32,000 nucleotides of DNA from Pyrobaculum calidifontis JCM 11548 (GTDB lineage Archaea > Thermoproteota > Thermoprotei > Thermoproteales > Thermoproteaceae). Position 1 is the stretch's first letter; every line of letters starts with the position of its first letter. A program made the position numbers and the translations under genes. Positions 1 through 21,976 of the stretch are shown one piece after another. Where the stretch lies: NCBI RefSeq assembly GCF_000015805.1, contig NC_009073.1, positions 30,001 to 62,000 of the forward strand, given 5' to 3'. The notes under the pieces are model-generated. The model searched no databases, was not told the origin of the DNA, and saw nothing but the letters and a program-made list of their open reading frames with translations.

Positions 1-1899
1 TTAGTTGTAATATTCTACTTGATGAATACATCACAGACTCCCACGGTGCCTACGCCGACACCGACAACTACTGCAACGGTGACCCCAAGCCCGACCACCT
101 CCACTACGCTGACGGCCACGCCCACTGAGACGCCGAAGCCCACAGCCACTGCTACTACGACGACGGCACCCAAGCCCAGCGCCGCGCCCGTGTATATCCC
201 ACGCCTCGAGGTAGAGCTGTCGGCGCCCCAGGCGGTGAACACCACGAAGTTGCCCACGGCGGTGAATTACACCGTGACGTTGAGAAACGTTGGAAACGGC
301 ACGGCGGTGGTGTACGTCTTTGGAAAATACGTGGAAGTCAAGCCGGGCGAGGTGGTTAAGTTAAACGCCACAGCCACGGCACAGGCGGCGGGCATACTCA
401 AAATAGCAGTCGAAGTAAACGGCACAGAGTACGCAAGGGAGGTCTACATCTACTACTACACACCGATCTTGGCGGCAGAACCCGCCTACGTCGAAGTGAG
501 AAAGTTACCCACAAACGTCACCCTAAGCGTGGTGGTAAAAAACGTGGGCAACTGGACCGGGAGGCTCGGCCCCATAGAGATACCGCCCGGAGGCACAGCC
601 GCAATAAATATAACAGCGGCGGTCAACGCCACAGGCACCTACTCTCTGCAAATAGGCGGCGTAGAGGTGCCCATAACCGTCGTGTACAAGGCGCCGAGCT
701 TTGAAATAAAGACGGGCGGCCCCACGGAGACGGAGGCCCTCCCCGGGGAGAAGTACCCCGCCTGGCTGTGGATAAAAAACGTGGGCAACGCCACAGCCAA
801 ACTCTCCATAGACGGCGAAGAAAGAGAGCTAGGGCCAGGCGACGCTGTCAATATCACAAAGTGGATACAAGTAGACAAGGTAGGCATCTACAAAGCTGTG
901 TTTAAGGTGGAGGGCGACTTAAACACGACGGCCGTGCACCAGCTGTCCGCCAAGATAGTGGCCGTGAAAGTGGAGATGGTGTTGTGGAAGCCCGAGCTCA
1001 GGAGGGGCTGGCCGCCGCCCAACGGGGAGGATAGAACGTCACTGTTGCTTGAATCCAAGACTGCCGAAGTGCAGTGGGGGTACATAATAACTTCAAACGC
1101 CAGCAAGCGAACTGTCGTAGTATATGTTGAGGACGTTCAAGGCCGCGACTATTTCACAATACCGCCCAAAGGCTCCGTAGGCAGAAATCTAACTGCCACA
1201 GTCCAAGCGCCGGGGAGCATAGCCGTCTGGGTAATCGTGAACGGCACTAAGTACACATACGTCATAAGTACACAACTTGTCCCGCCTAAGGTCACTATAA
1301 GAGATGTCTCAAAAATAGAGTTTAGAGACTCCAGAGAAATTCTTGGTCTAGGGATAAAGTGTAGCGGAATACCGATAGTGGGTACAATACAGCGTACAAT
1401 AGACATAGTGGAAGTTTCTGGAGTGTTGGCTTATACCACAGACGGCAAGACCATAGAGGGTACTGTAAAGATCAGAAGCGTCGACGTATACACAGGTAGC
1501 TACAGAGGTATCATCACTGGCACAAGCGGACGAGTAGACATCGATGTGGACTTCATGGGAGGACACCACGTAATTACTACAAAGTTCCGGACGTCTCCGT
1601 TTGAAATAACTGAGGTCCTAATAGACGGTGTCCCCGGGAAATGCGATATACCAACTCAGCTGATACCTAGCATATTCCTCAGCGGAAAACCCGCGGCTGA
1701 CAATGAATTGGCGACGCAGTACGCCTTTAGGCTAGTGTCTGCTTTTAAGAAGGGGGACAGCGACGTGCCTCAGCGGGTCGAGTGGAATGGAGAATACGTA
1801 GAGGTAGTAGACAAGGGAGGCAACGTGCTGAGGGTCTACTTTGGACAGGGAGAAGTGGTCATAGAGGGGCCCCTCTCGGCCAGGCTGGTGATATCTTAG
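1..1899 (+). CDS. Extracellular Thr/Pro-linker glycoprotein with three CARDB/Ig-like modules; 5' end probably lies outside the window
   Basis: The frame is open from nt 1, and codons 1-18 give LVVIFY, which looks like the end of a hydrophobic segment. The listed TTG(19)/ATG(22) may therefore be internal. A Thr/Pro-rich linker (TPTVPTPTPTTTATVTPSPTTSTT...) spans about nt 30-190. The motif NVGNxT recurs three times about 80-88 aa apart (TLRNVGNGTAVV, VVKNVGNWTGRL, WIKNVGNATAKL), as in CARDB-type beta-sandwich domains. I count about 15 N-x-S/T sequons by eye. Confidence 0.7.
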   Translation, partial: LVVIFYLMNTSQTPTVPTPTPTTTATVTPSPTTSTTLTATPTETPKPTATATTTTAPKPSAAPVYIPRLEVELSAPQAVNTTKLPTAVNYTVTLRNVGNGTAVVYVFGKYVEVKPGEVVKLNATATAQAAGILKIAVEVNGTEYAREVYIYYYTPILAAEPAYVEVRKLPTNVTLSVVVKNVGNWTGRLGPIEIPPGGTAAINITAAVNATGTYSLQIGGVEVPITVVYKAPSFEIKTGGPTETEALPGEKYPAWLWIKNVGNATAKLSIDGEERELGPGDAVNITKWIQVDKVGIYKAVFKVEGDLNTTAVHQLSAKIVAVKVEMVLWKPELRRGWPPPNGEDRTSLLLESKTAEVQWGYIITSNASKRTVVVYVEDVQGRDYFTIPPKGSVGRNLTATVQAPGSIAVWVIVNGTKYTYVISTQLVPPKVTIRDVSKIEFRDSREILGLGIKCSGIPIVGTIQRTIDIVEVSGVLAYTTDGKTIEGTVKIRSVDVYTGSYRGIITGTSGRVDIDVDFMGGHHVITTKFRTSPFEITEVLIDGVPGKCDIPTQLIPSIFLSGKPAADNELATQYAFRLVSAFKKGDSDVPQRVEWNGEYVEVVDKGGNVLRVYFGQGEVVIEGPLSARLVIS

Positions 1900-1907
1900 C
1901 AGGAGAG

Positions 1908-1921
1908 AAAATTTTAAAAAG
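1908..1921 (+). promoter_or_regulatory. TATA-like box for the giant surface-protein gene
   Basis: The sequence aaaattttaaaaag sits in the 31-bp spacer, about 27 nt upstream of ATG 1940. Confidence 0.4.
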
Positions 1922-1930
1922 ACGACCAAT

Positions 1931-4900
1931 TTGTGGTTCATGCATAACCAAGTAAAGTTAGTACTAGCACTCCTAATAATAACCGCCCTGGGAATAATGG
2001 CATACGCCCAGTATGGGCCTGGCCAAGCACTGCCCTCAGCCTTCAATGTGGTGATGCAAATAAATGATGCTAGGGCGGCTGCGGCCCTCGGATATCCGTT
2101 GTGCGCTCCTTGGGAAAAGGGCTTGGCTCACTACCCTCCCTATAAATTCGCAGCGGGTAAAAACTTCACCCTAATAATACGTGAGGTAGCCCAAAACCCC
2201 GTCTACCCGCCGCAGTTCCAGGACTACAGAGTTTCCTCAGTTGCCAATGAGACAGGCTTCGTTACGTTTAACATAAACGTGCCAGCTGGCGTAGATGTAA
2301 CAAAGAGATCTAAGTGGTATGTGGCAATAATAGTCGAATGGCCTAGAAAAGGCTATTACTTCTTCGTCTACGGCCGGGTGCTTGATGGTGCAACTCTGGT
2401 AGATGTTATAGGCAACCTCAGCGGGAGACCCGATAAGACGGGCTTCGACACATACGTAACGCCAGGGGGTGTACTACGTGTATACCATGGCGATAACAGA
2501 TATGGCGTCTTGTCCTCCAGCTATATCCACACATTCTATGTTGGCATTAACACCTTAGGGAACCCCTATGACCTCACCTTCACAAGACAAGTAACAATAA
2601 ATGGTACCACCATAACGCTTGAGGACTCGATAGGACCGGCTTCTGGCCCAACAAACTATGTAAAAAGTATAGATGGAAAAATTACGGCAGTATTCGGACC
2701 TTTCACATATTTAGCAACATACGTTGTATCACTGGGGAAAGCTGGCACAAGTCCAGAAACATACCTGGTAACAATAGCCCCAGGTAAAGTAGCTTACAAT
2801 CACTATGTTTACATAACAATTGAGGGAATGCGCGGGCTAGTGATTCAGAGTAAAAATGATGCATTCGTAGAGCCCCTAGGTTTCGTAGCGTTCACTTTGA
2901 ATAGGACAGCTGGGCCTGGTACCGGCGAACCCGTGCCGCTGTCCTGCGGTTTGGTAGTGTGGAACATGACCCTCTACACAGTCACAGTCACTGGCCTCCT
3001 AGACCTCAAGGGTAACCCCATATTCAACCCAGAGAACTTTAGGTACAAGATCCAGATGAAGGTAGGCGACAGCTGGGTGACATTTAGCAGAGCACAAGCA
3101 TCGTGGAAGCTCACCCTAGGCGATGCCAAGGCCGTATTAAACGAGGTCTGCGGTACCATTAGCTCCTTCAGCGATATCATGAACTGCTATAGGTCGTTGG
3201 GACCCGACGGCTTTAGAAGCGCAGTTCTACGCCTATATGAACCAGTCACGCTTGCAAGACTAGGGGGGCTGCTCAAGTTGACAAACACAAATGCCGAAAT
3301 ATCTACCCAAGACTTAATCTCCAAGCTTGTAGTAGAGTACTCATACACGGCGGGCAACGACAGCGTTAAGGCAATAGTCCTCGAGGCGGCGTTGCTAGAG
3401 CCGGCCAATTTCCAGGGCGTGTTAAACGTGTCTGTGCTCCCCATTCAGATAAGGCTATGGAGGTGGGGCAACGACTCTCTGCCTCTGGCATCGAGAGAGT
3501 TCTACTACACCGATCCACTCGACTTGGCATCGCTGAGGTTTGTAGTTACTGGCGACACAATGTACCTAGACAGAATGGCGTACGACGGAGCTGTAACCTA
3601 TGACCCGTGGCTGGGCCAGGTGATATGGGCACTTCCGCCATACCAAGTGGTGCCCGGTCTAGTGGGCAACGTTAAAGCCCACTTGCTCTCGCTATTCAAC
3701 ACAAGCGGCTATCTCCCACTGCCCACCCTAGTCGCCAATCTCACAAACGTAGGCGGCAGAGTGACACTCGAGTACTACAACTACTCAGACGCTCTTGCAA
3801 ATGGAGACTTCTTCGCCAAGTTTGGAATAGGCTTAGTACAGAAGTACGGATACAAGTTTAGGATTTACAGCGGGCAAGTTCTCGTCGGTACAGCCAACCT
3901 AGAGGCCTATTACCCAGTGATAGACAAGTACGGCTTATTGATACACGCAAGGGCAGGCGACGCATTACAGGAGAAATATGGCGATGACGAACGCAAAGAC
4001 ATGTATGCCCTGCAAATATTGCAACCTGGCCGCTTCTACGATAGAGAGCATGTGTTACACATCGCAATCGTCAGGGTGTTCCAGAATATCTTGCTCAAGG
4101 ACGCTTGTGGCAACCCGGTGTACGGTGTTGGCGCCGGCTTGTCTGGAGCTAGCCTATCGCTGGTAATAACAGTGGGCGGGAGAAACTACACCATTGCCAA
4201 GTTGCCGCTTGGTAGCGAGGTGCCAGTTGACTTGTTCATACCCATCGACGAGTGGGGCAATCCGCAGATCGACCTCACCGGCGGGTATGTACAAGCCTAC
4301 GCCGTATTGAACTACTACGGCTACACACTATACCCCGTGGATAATATAACAAAGATACCGTCGTCGCAGCCCACGTGGTTCAACATACCCATCAAATTCG
4401 GCGTTGTCAAAAAGCCAGTCCTCTACTTGCCCATAGCGCCATTGCAGTTCAGAGTGTGGAGTCAGGCGGTTTCTGTGGACTACGACCCGTTGAAGGAGCC
4501 ACTGATGGGCTTCGTCGTTAGAGTATTCAGCACAGCCACGGGCGACGAGATTGCCCGCAGTATCTCAAATAAGGACGGCTACGCCTATGAGCCAAATGTG
4601 CCCATAGGCGTGCCGTTTAGAGTGCAAGTCCGCACAATAGTACCTACAAGCGACAAGAGGTGGAGCTACACCTACGACCAGATTACAAGAAAGAACGACT
4701 ATGCCTCATACGCCAAGGCGCTTGGCTTCACGCCGGCTGACAATGTCTATACGCTGGGCACAAGAGGCGCGATTGACAGCGGCTTAGTGGTCTACTCCAA
4801 GACGATGGCGTTGACGGCTGAGAATGCTACTCGGTATATCTGTGCCAAGAACGCCATAGACTTGCCCGTGGAGGTGTTCGACTTGGTGGTGAGAGTGTTT

Positions 4901-7900
4901 GACAAGACCGGCAAGTACTTGCTGAGGAGCCAGCCCGTCTTCCTAGGCCCGTACCCACAGGCCACGAGACCCGTCTTGTTGAACGTGACGCTGTTGCTTG
5001 CCGACGATTATAGCCCATACGCCTACGCCTCGATCTGGAGAGACTTCGGCAACGGCGACTTCAAGATCTTAACCGACTTCCGCGCCATAGGCATCACTGG
5101 TATGCGCTCCATCTACTTGAACTTGGCCAGCAAGTATTTGGACGCGGCTAAGAAGGCGCTTGGATGCCCGCAGTATACCACTGCCAACTACTCCGCCGCG
5201 ATTAACGCGTACGCCCTTGCGGCCATGGCTGGATACGTCGCCAACGCCTCGACCGACAGATACGCAGCGGTCTATCTCTTGACGTCGCAGCAGCCCAAGG
5301 ACATTATCAACCTCTGTGACATGAAGCCGTCGCAGGCTGGTACCGCGGAGATAGCCAGGCTCTTCATGAAGGGCCAGAGGTTTAGGTTCGTGGTGTGGTA
5401 CATGGGCCAGAAGGTCTTCGACGACTATGTCACAATAACTGGTCCACTGGTCGACATAAAGGCCGACGTATACCCAGTGAACGTCACCACCTACACCAAG
5501 AGCATGAGGCTACCCGTTGACACCTTCGTGGGCTTCACAATCACAGACGTCTACCTAGGGCTAGCCCTCAATAAGACCGACGGCATGTTCGCCAACAAGT
5601 CGCTAGTGCCGCAGTTAATTGCGCCGTTTGATACAATGTACAAGACTTACAACCTCTACTACTTGATAAGGGACGAGTTAGCCAAGGGCACGGCCACGTT
5701 GTACAATGACAATGTTACAGCGTTTGTTACTCCGCCAGCTTCCGTATATTATGGTGCCTACAAGCCTGCACAGTTTGGCGGCGACTTCGTATACCTGCCC
5801 AACCTGGCAATTCTGAGAAACGCCACCGCGCCCAAGTACCTGTCTACTGTGCTTAACAGTTACATCTCCACCACTATACCAATACGCCAGTTGAACACCA
5901 TACCGGCTGGTAGCGGCACTGTCACCATACCGGCTGGCGGCTCCGCGAGCATCACCATTGTTGGCGCAAAGATAGTGCCAGATCCGAATAACAACGCGAC
6001 GTACTTCAAGGTGACTTCGTACAATGGCACTGAAAATAGCAATATCGTTCAGCCACAGTTAATAATAACTGCAGAGTTAGCGATAGTAGGTGGTTCGTAT
6101 GTAAAGAACTATGTAGCTACCGTCGATGCCAACTACACAATTGACTTGACGGCTATAGCAAAGTGTGGTAATATAGTGGTTGCGCTCGGTGGGGGCGATT
6201 TAACATTGCAAATTACTGTGAGTGCTGGCTCATGCCCCGCTACCATCACCTATGCCGCCACTAACGCCAGCTACACGTGGAAGGCGTTAACATCTTCTGC
6301 GGCGCCTTCGACCGAGTATGTGGTGAGCTTTGACAGGTGGTTCCTAGTGCCGTACGACTGGCTGTTTGCACAGTACAATGTGCTATACCATGCAACCAAC
6401 GTAGTGGAGCGCAACGACGTGCTACAAGTGTTGGCATATCCGGGCGCTACACAGATATGCGCACAACCCGCTGGACAAGTAGCAGCGGGCGAGGACGATG
6501 AGTATAAGTACAAGTTGACACTGACAGGCGTTAATGTGGCAAACTACCGCACGCTGGCTGTGGAGTTGCCTTGGAAGGCTGGTGGCGGCGGCAAGGCCTT
6601 GGTGAATATCACTGCGTACTTCGCCAATGGCACTAAGATTGACAGTATTGTGTACAACTTGACTGACATGCTGAAAGACGCGAGGGGCACAAGGGTTAAG
6701 GTGTTGTTGCCGTTGAACTTCGGCAAAGTTGGCGCAAAGGCCTACGACATAGCTGTAAGCAAGGCCACCGTCCGCTTTGACATTACGTTCATGATGTACG
6801 ACCCGAAGACTGGTCCATACAGCGTCTGCGCAGTGAAGCTGGTGCCTCTCGCCGCCAACTACACCAGCGTCTCCGAGTATGAGTGCACTGTGCCAACTGC
6901 ACCGGGCGTGCCGGAGCGCATAGACCCAGCCACTGTGGTATATGCCATTGATCCGATGCTGTCGAGCGCCAACGGTTTTGATGAAACGTTCGATGCCTAC
7001 GGCGGCTTTGGCACGCCGATTACCTATGTGGTGAAGTCTGGCGAGGTTGCTCTACTGCCGTCGTGGTACTACAAGACCGCTGTGGGTGGCTCCCGCATTG
7101 CTAGAGTCTGGATAATTGCGGCTAGCGACGACCCGAGCAAGGGCCCGGCGCTTGGCACTAAGTACTACAGCTACACTGTGAAAGACGACAAGGTGACGAT
7201 CAACGTGTACAAGTTTGAGAAGTACTTAGTGGTGAACTTCGTGCCCAACGTCTGCCCGGCCGGCTATGTGAGTCAGACGTTCTTAGACGAGTTCGACGGC
7301 TCTGGCCGCATCACTGGCCTAGGCTTTGGCACAGGCGGCACCAGCGCTCTGGTGTTGAGCAACTACACGCGTGTACAGATGTGGAACTCCACTGCCATGT
7401 GGCTAGCCGGCGGCGTGTTTAAGCTGCCCACCGTCGCGCTCGACGCCTTGACTGTGCAGAACAACGCCAAGTTCCCAATCGTCGTTGACTCGCTGAACGT
7501 GAAATACCGCGACTACAAGTACAGCATACCCATGGCGCCTGTCCGCGTCAACGCCAGCGAGACTAGGACCGTGTTGCTGAACAGCTACGGCTTCGGCAGA
7601 ACCTACATGTTCAACATAAGCGACGTGTGGGCGTTTAAGCTTGTACAGCCCAACTACGAGTACGGTCTCAACGTCTACCATGCCGGGTTGCTAGACGCGT
7701 TGAAGCACTTTGGCATATCCACTGACAAGCCGCTGTCAGCCTACTTGAAGCCGCTGACCTCTGCCTACTATGTGCAGAACGTGCTGTACGCCAGCCACGC
7801 CGAGACCTCCGACTGGACGTTCGGCATATTAAACGGCAAGATCACTGAGATCACGAGAGGTACTTGGGGCGACTTGAGGACAGACGCCAGCGACTACGAC

Positions 7901-9925
7901 TACAAGTACGTCTTCAACTACCCGACTCTGCCGCTTAAGGAGATACGCGACTGGAACGACAGGCCGCTTGCCAACCAGACTGTGGCTCTATTTGACGGAA
8001 GCGGCGCCTTATACGCCGTCGTGTACACCGGCGCTAACGGCCAGTTGATCTACCCGTTGCCCGCCATCGCCAGCCCAGTGGTGCGCGTGGCTTGGTACAA
8101 TGGCTACCTTGTAACGCTGATTAAGGGCTTGCCGGAGTTTACCATATGGATCTACGACCAGACCATTAGCCGCGACGTCACTGAGTTAGGCGACGCCCGC
8201 GTTGTTGACAAAATTAGGACGTACGTCTATCCGGTGACTGTGTCTGTGTACGACGAGGCTGGGAGGCCGTTGAACAACATGTGGGTGCGGGTGATAGACG
8301 CTGGCACCTCTGGCAACCTAGTTACATCGCTGAACAGTACTGCCTCCGATGGCGGTGCGCAGATTGTTGACTTGAGAATTTCGAAGTACGCCAGTGGCGT
8401 GATGTCGCAGATACCTGCCACGTCGTATTACTACTACGTGTATGACCAGAGCGGCGCCTTGGTGGCGGCTGGCAAGTTTGACATAGAGCGTGGCGCATCT
8501 GTTCCATCGACTGGTTACAACGTCCAGGGCAAAGTGATTACGTACTCGCAGGTGCCTGTGAAGAACTCGGCGACTCGCGGCTACATAGTTGTAAAGGGCG
8601 TGCAGTTTGTCAACGGCACAGTCAAGGACGTCGTGTATCCGTTCACAGTGTCTGGCGGTGTGATGACTATAAGTGGCAAGTTGCCGCTGAGCTACTCGTA
8701 CCCGGTGGAGATCTACGTAACTCACGTGACACTTGGCGGCCAGGAGGTGCCTGTGAAGGGCGGAAGGTTCCTCGTGTATAGGGGCACTACCACCGACCTC
8801 GCCGCTGGCCTAGACTTCGCAGAGCTTGGCCTGACTGGCGTGGTGTCGATCTCCGCCGTTGATACAACCGGCGCGCCGAGGTCCGACTGGACTGTGCAAG
8901 TGCTCTACGGCAACATAACTGCGGCGGAGGGCAAGGGCTCTGTCAACGTCGTCCTGCCGCGCACCGACGTGCTAGGCCAGCCGTACACGGTGAGAGTGGT
9001 GACTAATGTCATTACGCCGGAGGGCAAGGCTCTTGTGAAGGAGCAGGCGCTTGAGGTAACGCAGAAGGCCCTCGCTGTGCAGATACCCATATCCACTGTC
9101 CGCGTTGTGGTGCAGGCGGTGGATGGCTTTGGGAACGTTAGACAAGACTGGCCAGTTGTGCTCGAGAATGTTGCCTCTGGCATGGGCCAAGTATCTGCAG
9201 AGGTGGTGGAGGGTCAGCGCTATGTGGCTAGAGCCACTGGCTTAGGCTTTACTAACACTACCGCCTTCACGGCGAGGGGTCCGCAGATGGTTGTCGCAAT
9301 TAAGATACCCACTGCCAAGATCACTGCCCAGGCGAAGGACGGCTTTGGTAAAGTGAGGAGCGATTGGCCAGTCGAAATTGTTGGCGTGGCGGCTGGGCAG
9401 GGCACTGTTGGGCCAGTGGAGGTGCTTGCTGGGCAGTACACTGTGAAGACGTCTGTCTTCGGCAAAGACTTTACGCAGACTGTCACACTGCAGCCTGGGC
9501 AGTCGCAGACAGTTGTTGTGCAAGTGCCCACGGCCGTGTTGAGCGTCACTGCTGTGGACGACGATAGGAAGCCAATTGATAGATATGTGACCGCTGTTCA
9601 GATCAGTGGCCCAGTGTCGCAGAGCTTCTCCACGTCGCCTAAGAACCTCGAGGTGCTTGCTGGGCAGTACACGGTGACAGTCTCTGCCTTGAACAAGCAG
9701 GCCTCGACGCAAGTGACACTACAGCCTGGCCAGACTGCGAATGTAGAAGTTGTTGTGCCGGGCACTGCTGGGCTAGACTTCTTGGGCACGAGGATTCCGC
9801 TTCCAACGCTGGTGCTCTACGCGCTGTTGCTGTTGGTGATCGTGGTGATTCTGGCGATTATAATCATTGAGTACAACAACTGGAGGAGGAGACGCTTAAT
9901 GCAGATTTTGGCCCCGCCGAAGTAA
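1931..9925 (+). CDS. Giant membrane-anchored surface glycoprotein (2,664-codon ORF); candidate S-layer/cell-envelope protein
   Basis: This is a single uninterrupted ORF. The N-terminus has a signal-peptide-like segment ([19 protein letters not shown]). The likely true start is ATG 1940, about 27 nt downstream of the TATA-like box at 1908-1921. I count about 40 N-x-S/T sequons by hand. The C-terminal part has tandem beta-sandwich repeats, then a hydrophobic helix ([25 protein letters not shown], about nt 9800-9874) followed by NNWRRRR. Confidence 0.85.
8825..9763 (+). repeat. Four tandem 73-88 aa coding repeats (carboxypeptidase-regulatory-like / Ig-like beta-sandwich) at the C-terminus of the giant protein
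   Basis: Repeat units start at nt 8825, 9089, 9311 and 9530. Shared motifs are (A/Q)(V/K)D..G..R.DW(P/T)V, (L/V)AGQYTV and TLQPGQ(S/T)..V.V.VP. The similarity also shows at DNA level: gtgcttgctgggcagtacac occurs at about 9421 and 9654, and cagcctgg(g/c)cag at about 9491 and 9723. Confidence 0.75.
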
Positions 9926-9930
9926 AACCC

Positions 9931-9940
9931 CTCTTTTTCC
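9931..9940 (+). terminator. Oligo-T archaeal terminator candidate after the giant gene
   Basis: The sequence ctctttttcc lies immediately after the stop codon at 9923-9925. Confidence 0.3.
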
Positions 9941-9983
9941 CATATTACCACCCACCTTTTTAACCCCCTCTCTCATTTTACTC

Positions 9984-10568
9984 ATGCTTGGACAGCTCTT
10001 GGTCTCACACGCCCGTCTCTCCATGGTTCACAAGCTCCGGGGCCTCGCACTTCCCGAGCCGCCTGAGGCCCTCCTAGGCCTTAAGTACGGTGTGTTTGTC
10101 ACTGTGGAGGGGATTGTGAGGTCCGGCGGCTACGAGAGGCGGGAGGTGCGGGGCTCGCTTGGCACTGTCTTCCCAATGCAAGACTTGGGGCACGACGTCG
10201 CCCGCATAGCGGCTAGGCTCGCCGTATCTATCCCACGCTTCACCGAGTTCGACCTGCGCCGCTCTGTCGTCGAGGTAACTCTCGTAGAGGGCCTCTCGGA
10301 GTGGGACGGCGACCTGTCTAACTTCGCCTGGGGTCGGGAAGGCGTGTATGTGGAGGCTGGGGAGCGGCGCTTTGTCGTCCTCCCCCAGACTATCATTGAG
10401 CGGAGGCTGTTCGGCGAGGCGCTCCTCCGCTACGTGGAGTCCATGGGCGGGGCGGGGGGCACCCTTTACAAGTTCTCTACCAGAATTTTCTACGAGGTTA
10501 GGCCCGAGGGGGAGGTAATTGAGCGAGAGCTGTGGAAGTCGCGTGTAATAAAGCAATTTGTGCGTTAA
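9984..10568 (+). CDS. AMMECR1-like protein
   Basis: The pattern YGVFVTVEG...VRGSLGT...PRF...VEVTLVE...GVYVE.G.RR.VVLPQ matches the AMMECR1 core (GVFVTL...LRGCIG...DPRF...). Ser replaces the usually conserved Cys. A TATA-like cctttttaacc lies about 25 nt upstream of the ATG. Confidence 0.6.
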
Positions 10569-10596
10569 CTTTATATTGGTGGGCCTTGTCGTTCCT

Positions 10597-11397
10597 ATGT
10601 ATATTGAGTTGTTCGTAGTGTCTGGGCAGAGCGGCGATCTTGAGGGGGCTCTTAAGAAGGCTGTAGAGGAGATTAGGGGGAAGGTGCAGAGGCCTGATAA
10701 AGTGAGGCTTGCCACTGTGAAAATTAGGCCGGACGCTGTGGACCAAGTGTTGAAGCTTCTCGGCGAACCGCCCGATAAGGTTCCTCCGCATTACCGCTCG
10801 TTGGTGAATATGTTGAAGAAGTACGGCGTGTCGAAGTTCCCAGCTGTGGTCATAGACGGCGTCAAGGTGGGCGAGGGTGACGTCTCTGTTGACGAGGTCC
10901 TCCGCGTGGTCCAGGAGAGGGCGAGGGCCGAGTTCCCAGAGCTCGCAGGCGTCGAGCTGGCCCCGCCGAGGCCGGCCGCCGCCGAGGCGCCCAAGCCTCT
11001 GCCGCCGGTAGAGGCAAAGCCCGTCGAGGCTCCCCCGCCTGCGAGGCCGCAGCCAAGCGAGGTCGTGCCCGTAGCGCCGCCTCCTCCACCGCCCCCGCCG
11101 CCGCCACCTCCGTCACCTCCACCTCCGCCAGTTGTTCCGGCTGAGGTGCCTAGGCCAGAGCCGCCTAGGCCTGTCGAGCTTCCGCCGCCGTCGAGGCCGC
11201 CTGTTGCCGAGGTATCGCCTGTGATGCCTGCTCGCGGGAGGGTCACGGCGGTTGTAAAAGTTGTCTTGGGCCGCCCGGACAACTGCTCTGAGTGTGCCTA
11301 CTATGGCCCAGTGACGGGCAGATGCTTCCTCTTCGGATTCGCCGTCGTCGACCCGTCGCGGCCGCCGTGTAAACAGTATGCTAGAGGTGGAGGTTAA
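10597..11397 (+). CDS. Poly-proline protein with a thioredoxin-fold-like N-domain and a C-terminal 4-Cys motif (function unknown)
   Basis: ATG 10597 lies about 22 nt downstream of ctttatatt (10569-10577), so the listed 10558 start is probably too long. A Pro-rich segment spans about nt 10960-11235 and includes P12-S-P5. The C-terminus reads CSECAYYGPVTGRCFLFGFAVVDPSRPPC. The gene overlaps the next gene by 20 nt. Confidence 0.6.
   Translation: MYIELFVVSGQSGDLEGALKKAVEEIRGKVQRPDKVRLATVKIRPDAVDQVLKLLGEPPDKVPPHYRSLVNMLKKYGVSKFPAVVIDGVKVGEGDVSVDEVLRVVQERARAEFPELAGVELAPPRPAAAEAPKPLPPVEAKPVEAPPPARPQPSEVVPVAPPPPPPPPPPPPSPPPPPVVPAEVPRPEPPRPVELPPPSRPPVAEVSPVMPARGRVTAVVKVVLGRPDNCSECAYYGPVTGRCFLFGFAVVDPSRPPCKQYARGGG
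11077..11130 (+). repeat. Homopolymeric proline-codon run (PPPPPPPPPPPPSPPPPP)
   Basis: I read it directly as ccg cct cct cca ccg ccc ccg ccg ccg cca cct ccg tca cct cca cct ccg cca. Confidence 0.9.
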
Positions 11398-11908
11398 GTA
11401 CCGCGCCCGCCTTGGCGAAGTTAGGGGAAGGGTTTTGGCTTTGGGCTTTTCTCCTTGGGGCGTCTCTGAGGAGGTGGACACATACTTCCAGCACCCTTGT
11501 AGAGACTTCGCCGCCACGGACGAGGCCCTCCGGGTCAGAGTGTCGGGGCGCTCTGCTGTTTTGACATATAAGGGGCCTAGAGTAGGCGCCGGCGCCAAGA
11601 CCCGCGTTGAAGTTTCCACGTCAGCGGAGCCCTCAGTTGTCGAGCTGTTGGAGAAGCTTGGCTTTGCAAAAGTGGCCGTGGTTAAGAAGCGGCGAGAGTA
11701 CTACGAGGGGCTTGGGGTCTTGGTCTCTCTGGACGAGGTGGAGGGGCTGGGGGAGTTCGTGGAGATTGAGAAGGTGGTTGCCAGAGAGGAGGACATACTG
11801 GGCGCGGTGGAGGAGCTGAGGCGCATAGCCTCCCTCCTAGGCCTCGTGGAAGAGGTCAAAGAGACATACCTAGAGCTGGTGTTGAAGCACACTGCGAATA
11901 GGCAGTAG
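11378..11908 (+). CDS. CYTH-domain protein (triphosphate tunnel metalloenzyme / class IV adenylyl-cyclase-like)
   Basis: The N-terminal MLEVEVKYR carries the ExExK signature of CYTH/CyaB-ThTPase enzymes. The size (176 aa) and alternating beta-strand pattern fit. Confidence 0.7.
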   Translation: MLEVEVKYRARLGEVRGRVLALGFSPWGVSEEVDTYFQHPCRDFAATDEALRVRVSGRSAVLTYKGPRVGAGAKTRVEVSTSAEPSVVELLEKLGFAKVAVVKKRREYYEGLGVLVSLDEVEGLGEFVEIEKVVAREEDILGAVEELRRIASLLGLVEEVKETYLELVLKHTANRQ

Positions 11909-12119: not shown

Positions 12120-12929
12120 TTATAATTGTAACGGCGTCAGCTCTCTCCTTGTCTCTATTAACCACACCCCGAGCTCTCGCGCCTTTTCTACTGCCTTAGG
12201 CGCCGCGAGTTGGCAGTACAAAACTTTGGCCACCCGCCCCGGGAACTTGTCGGGCCACCTTCTCACAGCCTCCTCGACCCTGGCCACGACTCTTTCTACG
12301 TCGTTGGGGCCGCATCTCACCTTGGCTTCTCCCAAGACTGCCACATCCCCGGCGGCGCAGTAGACGTCGAATTCGTATTCTTCGTCCAAGAGGAGGCGTT
12401 GGGCGGAGCACACAATGCCCCTCTGTTTTAAAAACCACTCTACAAACTCCCTAGCCATCTCCTCGACGGAGATTGCCAAAGACTCAAACTGCTCCTTAGT
12501 AGCCATCCTATTCTCCAGCCGCCTTATATCCTCTTTAGTCGCAAAGCGTTCCAAGTCCTCCTTTGTGGCCATTCTGGTCTCCAAGGCCTTAAGGTCGTCC
12601 TTAGTCGCCATTCTCTCTTCCAAGCGTTTGATGTCCTCCTTGGTTGCAAATCTTTCTAAGTCCTCTTTAGTGGCAAAGCGCTGTAAATCCTCCTTTGTCG
12701 CCATTTTCGCCTCTAGGGCCTTGATGTCGTCTTTTGTGGCTACGTTGAGCGGTATTGTGATCATAGCCGCCAGCTCGGCGGCAAGCCTAGCCCTAGCCCT
12801 CGGGCTCCTCAGCAGGGTCTCCACAAGCTCCTCAGCCCCACTATCGCCAATAGCCTCTAGCAGAACCCCTCTGAGAAACTCCCTATCCTCCTCCGCCAGC
12901 CGCTTGAGAAGTCTCTTAAACTCCTCCAC
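12120..12929 (-). CDS. Coiled-coil 'ATKEDL'-repeat protein with a C-terminal PD-(D/E)xK nuclease-like domain
   Basis: There are eight ATK(E/D)(D/Q) units in alternating 9- and 13-aa spacing between aa 63 and 151. The C-terminus reads EFDVYCAAGDVAVLGEAKVRCG, a D...E-x-K arrangement typical of the restriction-endonuclease fold. From memory the architecture resembles DUF3782 plus PDDEXK_10 (formerly DUF1626); I have not verified this. Confidence 0.7.
   Translation of the reverse strand: MEEFKRLLKRLAEEDREFLRGVLLEAIGDSGAEELVETLLRSPRARARLAAELAAMITIPLNVATKDDIKALEAKMATKEDLQRFATKEDLERFATKEDIKRLEERMATKDDLKALETRMATKEDLERFATKEDIRRLENRMATKEQFESLAISVEEMAREFVEWFLKQRGIVCSAQRLLLDEEYEFDVYCAAGDVAVLGEAKVRCGPNDVERVVARVEEAVRRWPDKFPGRVAKVLYCQLAAPKAVEKARELGVWLIETRRELTPLQL
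12477..12743 (-). repeat. Tandem in-frame coding repeats (27- and 39-nt units) encoding ATKEDLxRF / ATKEDIKRLExRM
   Basis: On the + strand the region shows repeated ...tcctc(c/t)tt(a/t)gt(g/c)gc(c/a)a... units. The translation gives MATKEDLQRFATKEDLERFATKEDIKRLEERMATKDDLKALETRMATKEDLERFATKEDIRRLENRMATKEQ. Confidence 0.8.
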
Positions 12930-12957
12930 AACACTTACGAGAGCTATAAAAATAACT

Positions 12958-14709
12958 TTAGGTGGTTGGTACTTTCTTTTGGCGTTGGTACATTTCCACG
13001 AGCTCTTTTGTGGTTGTGGCGTCTTCTGGCCTTTTGTCTGTCCTGTAGCGGCCGGTGAATCGTGGGAATCTAATGGCGAGCCCCACGCCGGGCTTCACCG
13101 CGCCTATACAACACGTGTGGAGGGGTGAGAGGGTGATCTCTGCGCCTATCACCTCTATCACCACCTGGGGCACGAACCAGACGTCTGGCTGCATTTTGGA
13201 GACTACTCTTGGATGTCTGTGGGGTATTTTGAGGGGCTGGAGCATGTCGTACATCCTGCGGAGGTCTGCGTCTGTGAATCCGCTACCGACTTTGCACACT
13301 GTGTAAAACATGTCGGTTGAGGGGTCGTAGGCCGCCAGCAGAAACGCCCCGTAGAGGCCTGCCCTTTTTCCTCTGCCGTGGAAAGCGCCCACTACCACTA
13401 GGTCTACTGTGTCTATCATTTCGCTTCTGTAGTCTCTCTTGTACTTAATCCAGTTCCAGCCCCTGGCCCCCATCTCGTATGTGGAAGTGGGGGATTTGCA
13501 GATGAGGCCCTCTGTGCCCAGGGAGACGGCCTCGTGGAAGAACAAGTCCACATCCTCCGCGCCGTCGAACATTCCCCACTTGGCTATGTAGACGTCTCCC
13601 CCCTCCTCTACTACCTCGGATAGGCGTAGCCTCCTGTAGATGAGGGGCTGGGTGGTTAAATCCTCCCCGTCTACGTACAAGAGGTCGAAGAGGTAGAGGA
13701 CTGCGGGGTAGGCCTCCATTGCCTCAGCCACGTCGTGTTTCCGCTTCCGGTGCATAAGCTCTTGGAATGGCAACATCTCCCCGGTGTCTGGGTCCACTGC
13801 CACAATTTCGCCCTCCAGTATGGCCTCCCTCGCCTTGACCGCCTCTTTCACGGCCTTGGCCACGTCGGGGTATGCGTGGGTAATGTCCTCAAGCCTCCTG
13901 CTGAATATTTTCACCGAGCCCTCTCTTAGGTGTATCTGGGCCCTCTCCCCGTCGTATTTGTACTCGCAGATGGCCGTGCCGCCTAGCTTCGCCAAGATCT
14001 CCGACGCCGAGGAGAGGCGCTGGGCTAGCATGGGGAGAACAGGGACCCCCGGCGTGATTTTTATCTCCTCCAGCGGCCTCCCCTCTGCCACATGTCTCGC
14101 CAGGCGGCCTAGGTCGGGGTAGACGTGGTAAGCTCTCTCAAGCCCCTCCTTAGACACGCCGAAGGCCTCGGAGAGGGCCTCTATGAGAGTCATGTCGGCT
14201 ACTCCCAGCCTGAGCTTCCCAACTACAAATCGGGCGATGTACTTGGCCTCCTCGGGCGAGGCGCGGGAGAAGAGCGAGGAGAGGAGAGACACCTTCAAGT
14301 CCTGGGCCCCCTCTCCCGCGGCCTTGGCCACCTTGAGCAAGGTGTCGTAAACCTCGGCCACCTCCAGCGGCTTCTGCTGGGCGAAGGCCAGGAGAGTGGG
14401 CCTCTTGCCCGCCGCCAGGGCTCTCCTCGCGACTTCGCCCACGTCTCCGCTCTTCTTGTACCACCCCTCGAGCTCCGCGGCCGAGAGGCCGGTGGCCTTT
14501 GAGATGGCGCGGATGCAGAGCTTCTCGGCCACACCCAGCTCTACCCCCTCCCAGGGGGGTCTCAAATCGCCCAGGATGAAGTATACAATTTTATCGATCT
14601 CCTCCGGTTTGGCCTTTTTAAAGAGCGAGGTGAGTAGCTTCACCATGGTGGTCCGCTGCGTCGTGCTCTCCACGGCAGCTAAGACCTTGGCCAACTCGCC
14701 GAATTGCAT
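12958..14709 (-). CDS. lig: ATP-dependent DNA ligase
   Basis: The protein is 583 aa. The adenylation motif I appears as [13 protein letters not shown]. The layout is the typical archaeal Lig1 arrangement (N-terminal DNA-binding domain, nucleotidyltransferase, OB fold). Confidence 0.95.
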
Positions 14710-21028: not shown

Positions 21029-21628
21029 ATGGACGCACTTCAACACCTCGTCGACTTTATCAAGAGGAAAAAACCCGACGAAGACCCAGTGGCGTATCTC
21101 TATAGACTGGTCGAGGAGACCCTAGACCCCAGCGAGCGCGTCGACTTCTACGTAGAGTCCTCCGAACACTTCTGGCGTGAGGGGCTCGAGCTAGTGGAAA
21201 AAGGCGAGTTGAGACAGGGAAGCGAGAAAATTTGGAACTCAGTGGTCCAATTAGTCAAAGCGGCCGCCGAAAAGAAGGGCCTTAAACACCACACCCACAG
21301 ACTCGTGTGGGCCACCGTTAGGAAAATAGCCATGGAACACGACCCCGAGACTATCACCCTCTTCGCTGCAATAGAACAACTCCACATAAACTTCTACGAA
21401 GGGCACTTAGACAAATGGGACGTGGAAAAGCTCACAGAAGCCGCGGCCAAGCTCAGAAAGGTGCTATTCGCGTACTCAATGCAAATAAGGCAGGACATGC
21501 GCAGTAAGATAATTCGCAGTACATCCTCACATCTTTTATTCCTCAACCCCCTCTCTACACCACGGAGATGTATCCTTAACTCGAACCGCATACGCCCCCT
21601 ACTTTCTCTACTGTATCTTGTAATATAA
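21029..21628 (+). CDS. PaREP1-family protein (possibly HEPN-like helical domain)
   Basis: The stretch ...FWREGLELVEKGELRQGSEKIWNSVVQLVKAAAEKKGLKHHTHRLVWATVRKIAMEH...LHINFYEGH resembles the Pyrobaculum PaREP1 family as I remember it. RKIAMEH fits an Rx4-6H pattern. The last ~50 aa are low-complexity and atypical. Confidence 0.6.
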   Translation: MDALQHLVDFIKRKKPDEDPVAYLYRLVEETLDPSERVDFYVESSEHFWREGLELVEKGELRQGSEKIWNSVVQLVKAAAEKKGLKHHTHRLVWATVRKIAMEHDPETITLFAAIEQLHINFYEGHLDKWDVEKLTEAAAKLRKVLFAYSMQIRQDMRSKIIRSTSSHLLFLNPLSTPRRCILNSNRIRPLLSLLYLVI

Positions 21629-21882: not shown

Positions 21883-21976
21883 GGGCCCGTAGCTCAGCCT
21901 GGATAGAGCGGCGGCCTGCGGAGCCGTAGGTCGTGGGTTCAGGCAAAGCCGCCCAAAAATCCCATCGGGCCCGCCA
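21883..21976 (+). tRNA. tRNA-Arg(GCG) with one BHB intron in the T-loop; CCA encoded
   Basis: The sequence reads GGGCCCG TA GCTC AGCCTGGATA GAGC G GCGGC CTGCGGA GCCGT AGGTC GTGGG TTC [AGGCAAAGCCGCCCAA] AAAT CCCAT CGGGCCC G CCA. The result is a 7-bp acceptor stem, anticodon GCG and T-loop TTCAAAT after excision. Confidence 0.9.
21941..21956 (+). other. tRNA-Arg T-loop intron (16 nt)
   Basis: The central helix is GGGT/GCCC (one G-U pair), the bulges are TC|A and AA|A, and the inner hairpin is GGC-AAA-GCC. The boundary can slide by 1 nt because of the flanking As. Confidence 0.7.

Follow-up and report, generated by a model that had tools for sequence, protein, structure and literature searches.

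The closest described relative of the locus considered here is the surface layer (S-layer) of the archaeon Pyrobaculum arsenaticum. An August 2026 preprint reports the structure of its 290-kDa "colossal" S-layer protein (SLP), PySLP (HC235_06945, A0A7L4PAH2; 2,667 aa, 292 kDa) (Caspy et al., bioRxiv 2026, doi 10.64898/2026.08.21.746120; hereafter, the preprint). The evidence comprises mass spectrometry of the envelope, of which PySLP is the most abundant and the largest protein, together with a 5.75 Å single-particle electron cryomicroscopy (cryo-EM) map and an 18 Å in situ subtomogram average. Both the map and the average are fully explained by PySLP alone. A single chain supplies the canopy of a hexagonal lattice 37 nm above the membrane, the pillar of immunoglobulin (Ig) domains beneath it, and the membrane anchor. 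Here, we describe a locus of P. calidifontis JCM 11548, contained in a stretch of 32,000 nucleotides (the window; NC_009073.1, positions 30,001 to 62,000), whose first 10 kb hold two genes on the + strand, open reading frame 1 (ORF1) and ORF2, the second of which encodes a PySLP orthologue.

According to the preprint, PySLP carries a predicted signal peptide of 23 residues and 19 Ig-like domains, divergent ones among them, of which the canonical Ig7-Ig14 build the pillar. Its crown (residues 1312-1461) is Pyrobaculum-specific and has a positively charged surface, for which anion- or DNA-binding ideas have been proposed; Thermoproteus homologues are without a crown domain. The same 37-nm hexagonal layer is seen by electron cryotomography (cryo-ET) in P. 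oguniense. The PySLP gene lies in a 'potential operon' with genes for a membrane-associated Ig-like protein, for AMMECR1, for a thioredoxin-like protein, for an adenylate cyclase and for an ATP-dependent DNA ligase. The preprint also notes HHpred similarity between PySLP-like proteins and SlaB of the Sulfolobales, whose S-layers are multi-component.

An older proposal concerns Thermoproteus tenax. There, TTX_1887 (G4RLQ9) was put forward in the 2011 genome paper as the S-layer protein, being the genome's largest protein, rich in sequons (glycosylation sites), with a signal sequence at its N-terminus and a C-terminal transmembrane (TM) helix (PMC3189178). The preprint places it in the same family as PySLP; we compared it by description only.

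Two other archaeal S-layers invite comparison. In Sulfolobus acidocaldarius (7ZCX, 8QOX), a crenarchaeal canopy also stands high above the membrane, at ~30 nm, but the canopy (SlaA) and the coiled-coil stalk and anchor (SlaB) are separate proteins arranged in p3. A two-component architecture of this type was considered for our locus and rejected, as canopy, stalk and anchor are all in the single chain of ORF2, which has a stalk built of an Ig array and whose orthologue PySLP forms a p6 lattice. The Haloferax volcanii S-layer glycoprotein csg (7PTR/7PTP) resembles ORF2 in being rich in Ig-like domains and attached to the membrane at its C-terminus, but has six such domains rather than 19, reaches only about one third of its size, and is without a long pillar. 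It is lipid-anchored after processing.

The best explanation for the P. calidifontis locus, in which we have high confidence, is that ORF2 is the S-layer protein of this species and the orthologue of PySLP. Less firmly, ORF1 may be a factor acting beneath the canopy, and the SLP gene appears to have a promoter of its own. Claims about ORF1 are graded separately below, and lower. The two genes of the preliminary description, both confirmed on the + strand, are as follows:

1..1899, + strand: ORF1, by translation; its 5' end is cut by the window edge (~14 codons missing), and its family measures ~640-646 aa
1940..9925, + strand: ORF2, S-layer protein of P. calidifontis, PySLP orthologue, with 100% identity to A3MS57/ABO07474.1

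By far the largest open reading frame in the window, ORF2 encodes a product of 2,661 aa (289,964 Da, or 290 kDa; isoelectric point 8.5) that is identical at 2661/2661 positions to the deposited P. calidifontis JCM 11548 protein. BLASTP against PySLP, which was found by cluster look-up in the P. arsenaticum homologue cluster (P0037), covers residues 1-2661 with 1857/2686 identities (69%) and 2% gaps. Beyond their nearly equal lengths, the two proteins have in common a signal peptide, 14 Cys, the crown segment, the Ig-like pillar, a hairpin Phe, the TM helix, an RRRR...PPK tail, and their gene neighbourhood. They come from different species, and they differ in the crown (49% identical, net charge 0 in ORF2 versus +6), in the hairpin Phe, which is displaced by one position (GLDFLG in ORF2, GLDLFG in PySLP), and in the flanking genes, the ORF2 locus having an inverted DNA ligase gene and an additional, inserted gene. 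Further, the lattice was observed for PySLP, whereas ORF2 is known here from sequence alone. Among 5.8 billion proteins searched, 35 homologues came up. Full-length examples occur in every Pyrobaculum species (~2,630-2,850 aa, 58-87% identity), with one distant 43% match and the exact match falling outside that range. The locus can be annotated with confidence as the P. calidifontis S-layer gene.

Curated families add little to this identification. No Pfam or NCBIfam model matches ORF2 above threshold, and a PDB sequence search gave no significant match, the copy searched evidently lacking the PySLP coordinates. Sub-threshold Pfam matches to ORF2, in its pillar region, are to CarboxypepD_reg and Fn3-like models; these, like the CARDB, DUF7490 and 'New_glue' matches below threshold, reflect generic beta-sandwiches or low-complexity Thr/Pro linker. 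The preliminary description had seen about 2,300 residues with no family that could be named. That is correct for Pfam and NCBIfam, but these residues form divergent Ig-like domains in the solved orthologue, and do not constitute a new class of fold. Its observation that both proteins are dense in sequons also stands: ORF2 has 40 N-x-S/T sites against 16.5 +/- 3.9 in composition-preserving shuffles (z ~6), and ORF1 has 16 against 3.6 +/- 1.7.

The start of the SLP gene can be placed with little doubt, and with it a set of candidate transcription signals:

1905..1921, + strand: conserved A/T-rich element GAGAAAATTTTAAAAAG, in the 40-bp spacer between ORF1 and ORF2
9932..9938, + strand: T-rich tract TCTTTTT, 7 nt past the ORF2 stop, recognised by its letters only
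9957..9963, + strand: second TATA-like box, TTTTTAA, ~24 nt upstream of the AMMECR1 ATG at 9984, with the same geometry

The start listed for ORF2, TTG 1931, yields the 2,664 codons and 31-bp gap of the preliminary description. Almost certainly the gene starts at ATG 1940 instead, which corrects these figures to 2,661 aa and 40 bp, because the deposited protein and all homologues begin MHNQ or MHNP, because ATGCATAAC is a conserved block in a spacer alignment of seven species, and because a conserved element, GAAAAnTTTTTAAA, ends ~20 nt upstream of this ATG. That element is common to the six loci in which ORF1 abuts the SLP gene. Its counterpart in the window has the core TTTTAAAA (1912-1919), centred ~24 nt upstream of ATG 1940. 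We infer that it is an archaeal TATA box for a leaderless or near-leaderless SLP transcript. The T-rich tract is a possible archaeal oligo-T terminator, and, together with the second TATA-like box, suggests that the SLP and AMMECR1 genes lie in separate transcription units. As the SLP gene appears to have a strong promoter of its own in the spacer and is followed by an oligo-T tract, the ORF1-SLP pair is probably co-located rather than strictly co-transcribed. The conserved promoter-like box is a small addition to the published picture.

Along the ORF2 chain, the following regions can be distinguished:

1940..2008, + strand: signal peptide, residues 1-23, followed by Q24 (hydropathy; 65% identity to the predicted PySLP signal peptide)
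2009..7426, + strand: lattice-forming (canopy) region, residues 24-1829, containing all 14 Cys (alignment to PySLP)
5861..6307, + strand: crown segment, residues 1308-1456, equivalent to PySLP 1312-1461 (alignment; crown as defined in the preprint)
7427..9760, + strand: pillar region, residues 1830-2607, of tandem Ig-like/CnaB-like beta-sandwich modules (AlphaFold2, Foldseek, repeats)
9770..9799, + strand: membrane-proximal beta-hairpin, residues 2611-2620, with Phe2614 (AlphaFold2/DSSP prediction)
9800..9925, + strand: TM helix of the C-terminus, L2621-I2643, with a basic cytoplasmic tail ending in Lys, then a TAA stop (hydropathy, predicted helix)

By hydropathy and inspection, the N-terminus is signal-peptide-like, with a hydrophobic core and an A-x-A site. 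The canopy region is 59-78% identical to PySLP when compared region by region. ORF2 has exactly 14 Cys (residues 55-1772), in one-to-one correspondence with the 14 of PySLP (residues 54-1778), and their columns are kept in 17-20 of 20 aligned SLP sequences. The most divergent part of the protein is the crown, which aligns with a single gap and both crown Cys kept, at 49% identity. Its net charge (K+R-D-E, a crude count rather than a surface calculation) is 0 in P. calidifontis compared with +6 in PySLP, and among 20 Pyrobaculum SLPs it varies between -5 and +6, with P. arsenaticum at the positive extreme. By this count, a positive crown is thus not genus-wide in sequence, and the proposed anion- or DNA-binding role may not be general.

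The preliminary description rightly drew attention to beta-sandwich repeats at the C-terminus. The last four pillar modules (residues 2304-2607, nt 8849-9760), of 72-87 aa each, are recognisable as repeats in sequence, with pairwise Smith-Waterman z of up to 19 against shuffles; self-BLAST of the C-terminus gave no off-diagonal matches. An AlphaFold2 model of residues 1830-2661, built from a 20-sequence alignment, has a predicted local distance difference test (pLDDT) score of 80.4 and consists of consecutive beta modules, then a hairpin, then the TM helix. The preliminary description had proposed profile hidden Markov model and Foldseek searches as a check. The former found no curated family, and the latter, run with the pillar model, retrieved tandem Ig/CnaB arrays, including H. 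volcanii csg (7ptp_A, E = 2e-7) and the Ig-like region of Sulfolobus SlaB (8qox_B, E = 3.4e-6).

Below the pillar, the predicted hairpin strands span residues 2611-2614 and 2617-2620 (DSSP 782-785 and 788-791 of the model), in a segment that is almost invariant in Pyrobaculum. In the model, this hairpin with its Phe2614 would correspond to the conserved hairpin and Phe ring of PySLP. Hydropathy marks L2621-I2643 as the single strong hydrophobic segment of the C-terminus, and the basic tail after it is identical in 20/20 aligned homologues, across which the hairpin and TM helix are likewise conserved. The signal peptide and single C-terminal anchor of the preliminary description are therefore both borne out, by hydropathy, homologue alignment and the AlphaFold2 helix. 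One SLP homologue stands apart here. P0033, a metagenomic protein of 2,853 aa, is 43% identical overall, yet almost identical to P. calidifontis over its last ~75 residues, and could be a chimeric assembly or have a recombinant C-terminus.

Carried over by orthology from the structure observed in P. arsenaticum, the following picture would apply to P. calidifontis. The ORF2 precursor would be exported through Sec, its 23-residue signal peptide removed, and the chain N-glycosylated at many of its 40 sequons. A single C-terminal TM helix would hold it in the cytoplasmic membrane, with the basic tail in the cytoplasm. Six chains would bundle their C-terminal Ig-like modules (~1830-2607) into a hollow pillar, with the Phe hairpin just above the membrane, and their N-terminal ~1,800 residues, comprising divergent disulfide-containing Ig-like domains and a central crown, would spread into a hexagonal canopy ~37 nm up. 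Trimeric contacts between adjacent hexamers would join the lattice. The idea in the preliminary description that canopy, stalk and anchor of a tall S-layer are combined in one polypeptide agrees with the cryo-EM and cryo-ET of the 69%-identical PySLP. Its suggestion that the system was undescribed does not hold, since the preprint had already described it, and T. tenax TTX_1887 had been proposed on like grounds in 2011 (PMC3189178). Which protein makes up this tall Thermoproteales S-layer was settled by the preprint, from which family, architecture, taxonomic range and neighbourhood were all known already, and ORF2 is a confirmed orthologue rather than a discovery. The assignment matters nonetheless for P. 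calidifontis itself, which is used for work on archaeal pili, biofilm and N-glycans, and in which both proteins are still deposited as 'hypothetical'. What is still of interest is the ORF1 family, together with a divergently transcribed ~1,150-aa surface protein with an HExxH motif, encoded outside the window.

ORF1 is open from base 1 to a TAG at 1897-1899, with no upstream stop in the window. A hydrophobic helix opens its full-length homologues (MDTKPWLLLALAAALVVIFYL in P0044, which is 90% identical), so the window begins ~14 codons into the gene. Its parts are:

nt 1-21, + strand: end of the N-terminal hydrophobic helix
nt 22-198, + strand: Thr/Pro-rich linker, residues 8-66 (80% T/P/S/A)
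nt 199-1284, + strand: four predicted beta-sandwich modules, residues ~67-428, three of them with NVGNxT (AlphaFold2)
nt 1288-1896, + strand: C-terminal domain specific to the family, rich in beta-strands and with helices, residues ~430-632 (AlphaFold2)

The deposited P. calidifontis protein (P0045) has 541 aa and starts MTLRNVGNGT. This annotation appears to start ~105 codons late, given that the family measures ~640-646 aa, with an N-terminal helix and Thr/Pro linker whose reading frame is open here.

The Thr/Pro linker and the three NVGNxT motifs (residues 96, 181 and 260) are as the preliminary description had them. Its CARDB-like assignment fared less well, and the beta-sandwich fold is that of an AlphaFold2 model alone. 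In this model, made with 25 family members, mean pLDDT is 82.9, rising to ~90 outside the linker. The NVGNxT modules are like CARDB/DUF7490-type modules in being predicted beta-sandwiches, and a few family members come near the threshold. They differ in that no family member exceeds the curated threshold: the best reaches 22.2 bits against a CARDB (PF07705) cut-off of 22.7, and the copy in the window has no match. ORF1 likewise has nothing above threshold in Pfam or NCBIfam, and its profile has no significant match among PDB sequences. For the C-terminal domain of ~200 residues, neither a profile search of representative proteins nor the PDB yielded a match. The family is small, with ~24 true members recovered by profile search of 1.84 billion representative proteins; weaker matches cover a single Ig-like module. 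Foldseek with the ORF1 model against the PDB and BFVD found generic tandem Ig arrays only. Rank 39 of the BFVD matches, a weak one, went to A0A140F3L3, an uncharacterised protein from Pyrobaculum filamentous virus 1 (E = 4.5e-5, TM-score ~0.15), most likely a case of generic Ig-like similarity.

Three other identities for ORF1 were considered and rejected. The Joint Genome Institute label 'FlaG/FlaF', attached to some homologues, finds no Pfam or NCBIfam match in 25 members and no PDB sequence match, and, on inspection, neither of the homologue N-termini MDTKPWLLLALAAALVVIFYL and MNKTAIGLIALGFALIVAYLAL shows an obvious class III signal motif. A SlaB-like stalk does not agree with the N-terminal position of the hydrophobic helix, or with an AlphaFold2 model that has no long coiled coil. 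Nor is ORF1 a duplicate of SLP modules, the hhalign probability being 1.5%.

Synteny of the gene pair had been proposed as a check in the preliminary description, and the pair does prove to be kept: in 5/6 genome loci that reach the upstream region (L001-L004, L006), ORF1 immediately precedes the SLP gene, the exception being L005, where a 1,119-aa gene comes between them. The adjacency recurs in metagenomic contigs (L010, with an SLP of 43% identity, and L012 and L013, with SLPs of ~32%), in the closest relative (L014, L015), and probably in L011. Gaps of 35-44 bp are held even at ~32% SLP identity, from which it follows that the pairing is old. Both its age and its tightness support a functional link. 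Compared with the other neighbours, ORF1 has been paired with the SLP gene for much longer and more tightly, which makes it the obvious next target.

We speculate that ORF1, which is the membrane-associated Ig-like protein preceding the SLP gene throughout the Thermoproteaceae, is a sub-stoichiometric S-layer-associated factor located between membrane and canopy, serving in assembly, spacing or tethering. The preprint lists the gene as a neighbour and gives it no role. We offer this role tentatively, as one serious candidate and not as the expected outcome. Of much the same standing is its extension, that the ORF1 family is a dedicated accessory factor of colossal S-layers, forming an obligatory two-gene module with the SLP across the Thermoproteaceae, possibly together with the HExxH protein. 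If true, ORF1 might tether the S-layer, set its spacing or aid its assembly, as a so far uncharacterised factor working within the 37 nm beneath the canopy.

A comparable case can be made that ORF1 is functionally unconnected with the S-layer. It would then be an independent surface protein, engaged for example in adhesion, binding or sensing, whose position is kept by genome inertia or shared regulation. We give this a little more credence than the obligatory module, while still short of an even chance. ORF1 has no sequence or profile relation to the SLP, and no family or solved-structure match that would imply a function, its fold matching generic Ig arrays. Moreover, housekeeping genes (a replicative-type DNA ligase and a PfkB kinase) are equally syntenic, so that gene order need not mean shared function. 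Against this, adjacency across a fixed short spacer persists to much deeper divergence (32% SLP identity) than gene order usually does in these genomes, and the ORF1 family is confined to as narrow a phyletic range as the close PySLP family.

Improbable by comparison is a true two-component S-layer like that of SlaA and SlaB, in which ORF1 would be a stoichiometric lattice subunit or form the outer cap. The tight, ancient pairing, the sequon-rich and extracytoplasmic character of both proteins, and the multi-component S-layers of the Sulfolobales would all be in keeping with it. However, the PySLP lattice model covers all cryo-EM densities (doi 10.64898/2026.08.21.746120), the N-terminal helix and Thr/Pro linker place ORF1 at or near the membrane and not atop a 37-nm canopy, the conserved promoter-like element belongs to the SLP gene itself, and ORF1 stands apart from the SLP gene in L005. 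ORF1 is thus unlikely to be a lattice or cap subunit, because PySLP alone explains the lattice density, because its helix is followed by a flexible linker, and because the SLP gene has its own promoter-like box. The preliminary description had allowed the small partner either role, accessory or cap; the accessory one is plausible, the gene pair being very strongly conserved. Least credible of all is that P. calidifontis makes its S-layer from another protein, with ORF2 serving as a giant adhesin or in some other non-lattice role at the surface: the outer surface and crown are indeed the most divergent parts (49% identity, different charge) and the evidence from this organism is computational rather than experimental, but the full-length identity of 69% with 2% gaps, the retention of structural hallmarks and synteny, the same neighbourhood in 6/6 loci with a complete gene and both flanks, and the 37-nm hexagonal layer seen by cryo-ET in P. 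oguniense, whose orthologue is similarly distant (L001, 70%), all speak against it.

Several points weigh against the reading of ORF2 as the PySLP orthologue, with ORF1 beneath its canopy and a separate SLP promoter. What is said of ORF2 on lattice formation, abundance and glycosylation comes from an orthologue of 69% identity in another species. The preprint is not yet peer reviewed, and at 5.75 Å its map leaves side chains, disulfides and glycans unresolved. With a crown charge of 0 rather than +6, ideas of anion or DNA binding by the crown may not transfer. The putative SLP promoter and terminator are sequence signals only. As for ORF1, a role in the S-layer is inferred from gene pairing and not from direct evidence; the published lattice model requires no second protein; profile similarity to the SLP is absent, as the hhalign comparison indicates; its N-terminal helix may be either an anchor or a cleaved signal peptide; and L005 has a gene of 1,119 aa separating it from the SLP gene.

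Downstream of ORF2, the neighbourhood named in the preprint is present in altered form:

9984..10568, + strand: AMMECR1-domain gene (Pfam PF01871, E = 1.9e-12), syntenic in 8/8 loci reaching that far
10558..11397, + strand: conserved 279-aa neighbour (translation, synteny), whose N-terminal domain is joined by a poly-Pro linker to a C-terminal 4-Cys motif
11378..11908, + strand: CYTH/class IV adenylate cyclase, CyaB (Pfam PF01928, E = 3e-34; TIGR00318, 126.6 bits vs a 57.95 cut-off)
12120..12929, - strand: lineage-specific 269-aa gene, between CYTH and ligase
12958..14709, - strand: ATP-dependent DNA ligase (Pfam, NCBIfam), inverted here

The SLP gene occupies the same neighbourhood in all six loci with a complete SLP gene and both flanks, and the AMMECR1, 279-aa, CYTH/CyaB and ligase genes of the preprint's list are all at the ORF2 locus. 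In the 7/7 other Pyrobaculum loci, the DNA ligase is on the SLP (+) strand, directly after CYTH. With the ligase inverted and the 269-aa gene inserted, the preprint's 'potential operon' is not intact in P. calidifontis, and this broken linkage argues against a strict SLP-ligase operon. The flanks of the inversion (window 12120-14709) show no clear inverted repeats. The 269-aa gene, which has no Pfam or NCBIfam match, encodes tandem repeats of MATKEDL/RFATKEDI type (DNA repeat family 12463-12740). The 279-aa protein, also without a Pfam or NCBIfam match, is probably the preprint's 'thioredoxin-like fold' protein, the fold assignment being the preprint's. It has a long poly-proline linker PPPPPPPPPPPPSPPPPP and a 4-Cys motif CSECAYYGPVTGRC...PPC. 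In L001, L004 and L008, just its first ~140-150 residues align (single best high-scoring segment pair).

On the other side of ORF1, just left of the window edge, the conserved position of the divergent HExxH gene is reached. This gene of ~1,120-1,180 aa lies at 6502-9861 (-) in L005, 2145-5678 (-) in L010 and 366-3887 (-) in L014, where 31 bp separate its start codon from that of ORF1, and it is likewise found in L001-L004, L006 and L011. Its product combines a signal peptide, many sequons and a hydrophobic segment at the C-terminus with an HExxH motif around residue 95 (HEVAH/HEVGH), and finds no match in Pfam. It may be a surface-anchored metalloprotease of the same envelope gene cluster. 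The gene is absent from the neighbourhood list in the preprint's text (doi 10.64898/2026.08.21.746120).

Two features further along the window are of minor interest. A gene of the PaREP1/PaREP8 family, a repeated gene family specific to Pyrobaculum, lies at 21029-21628 (+; Pfam E = 8e-16), and a PaREP1 gene adjoins the ORF1 homologue in L012. A 91-nt tRNA at 21883-21973 (+; Rfam, 52.8 bits) was missed by ARAGORN in bacterial mode, and its extra length suggests an intron-containing archaeal tRNA.

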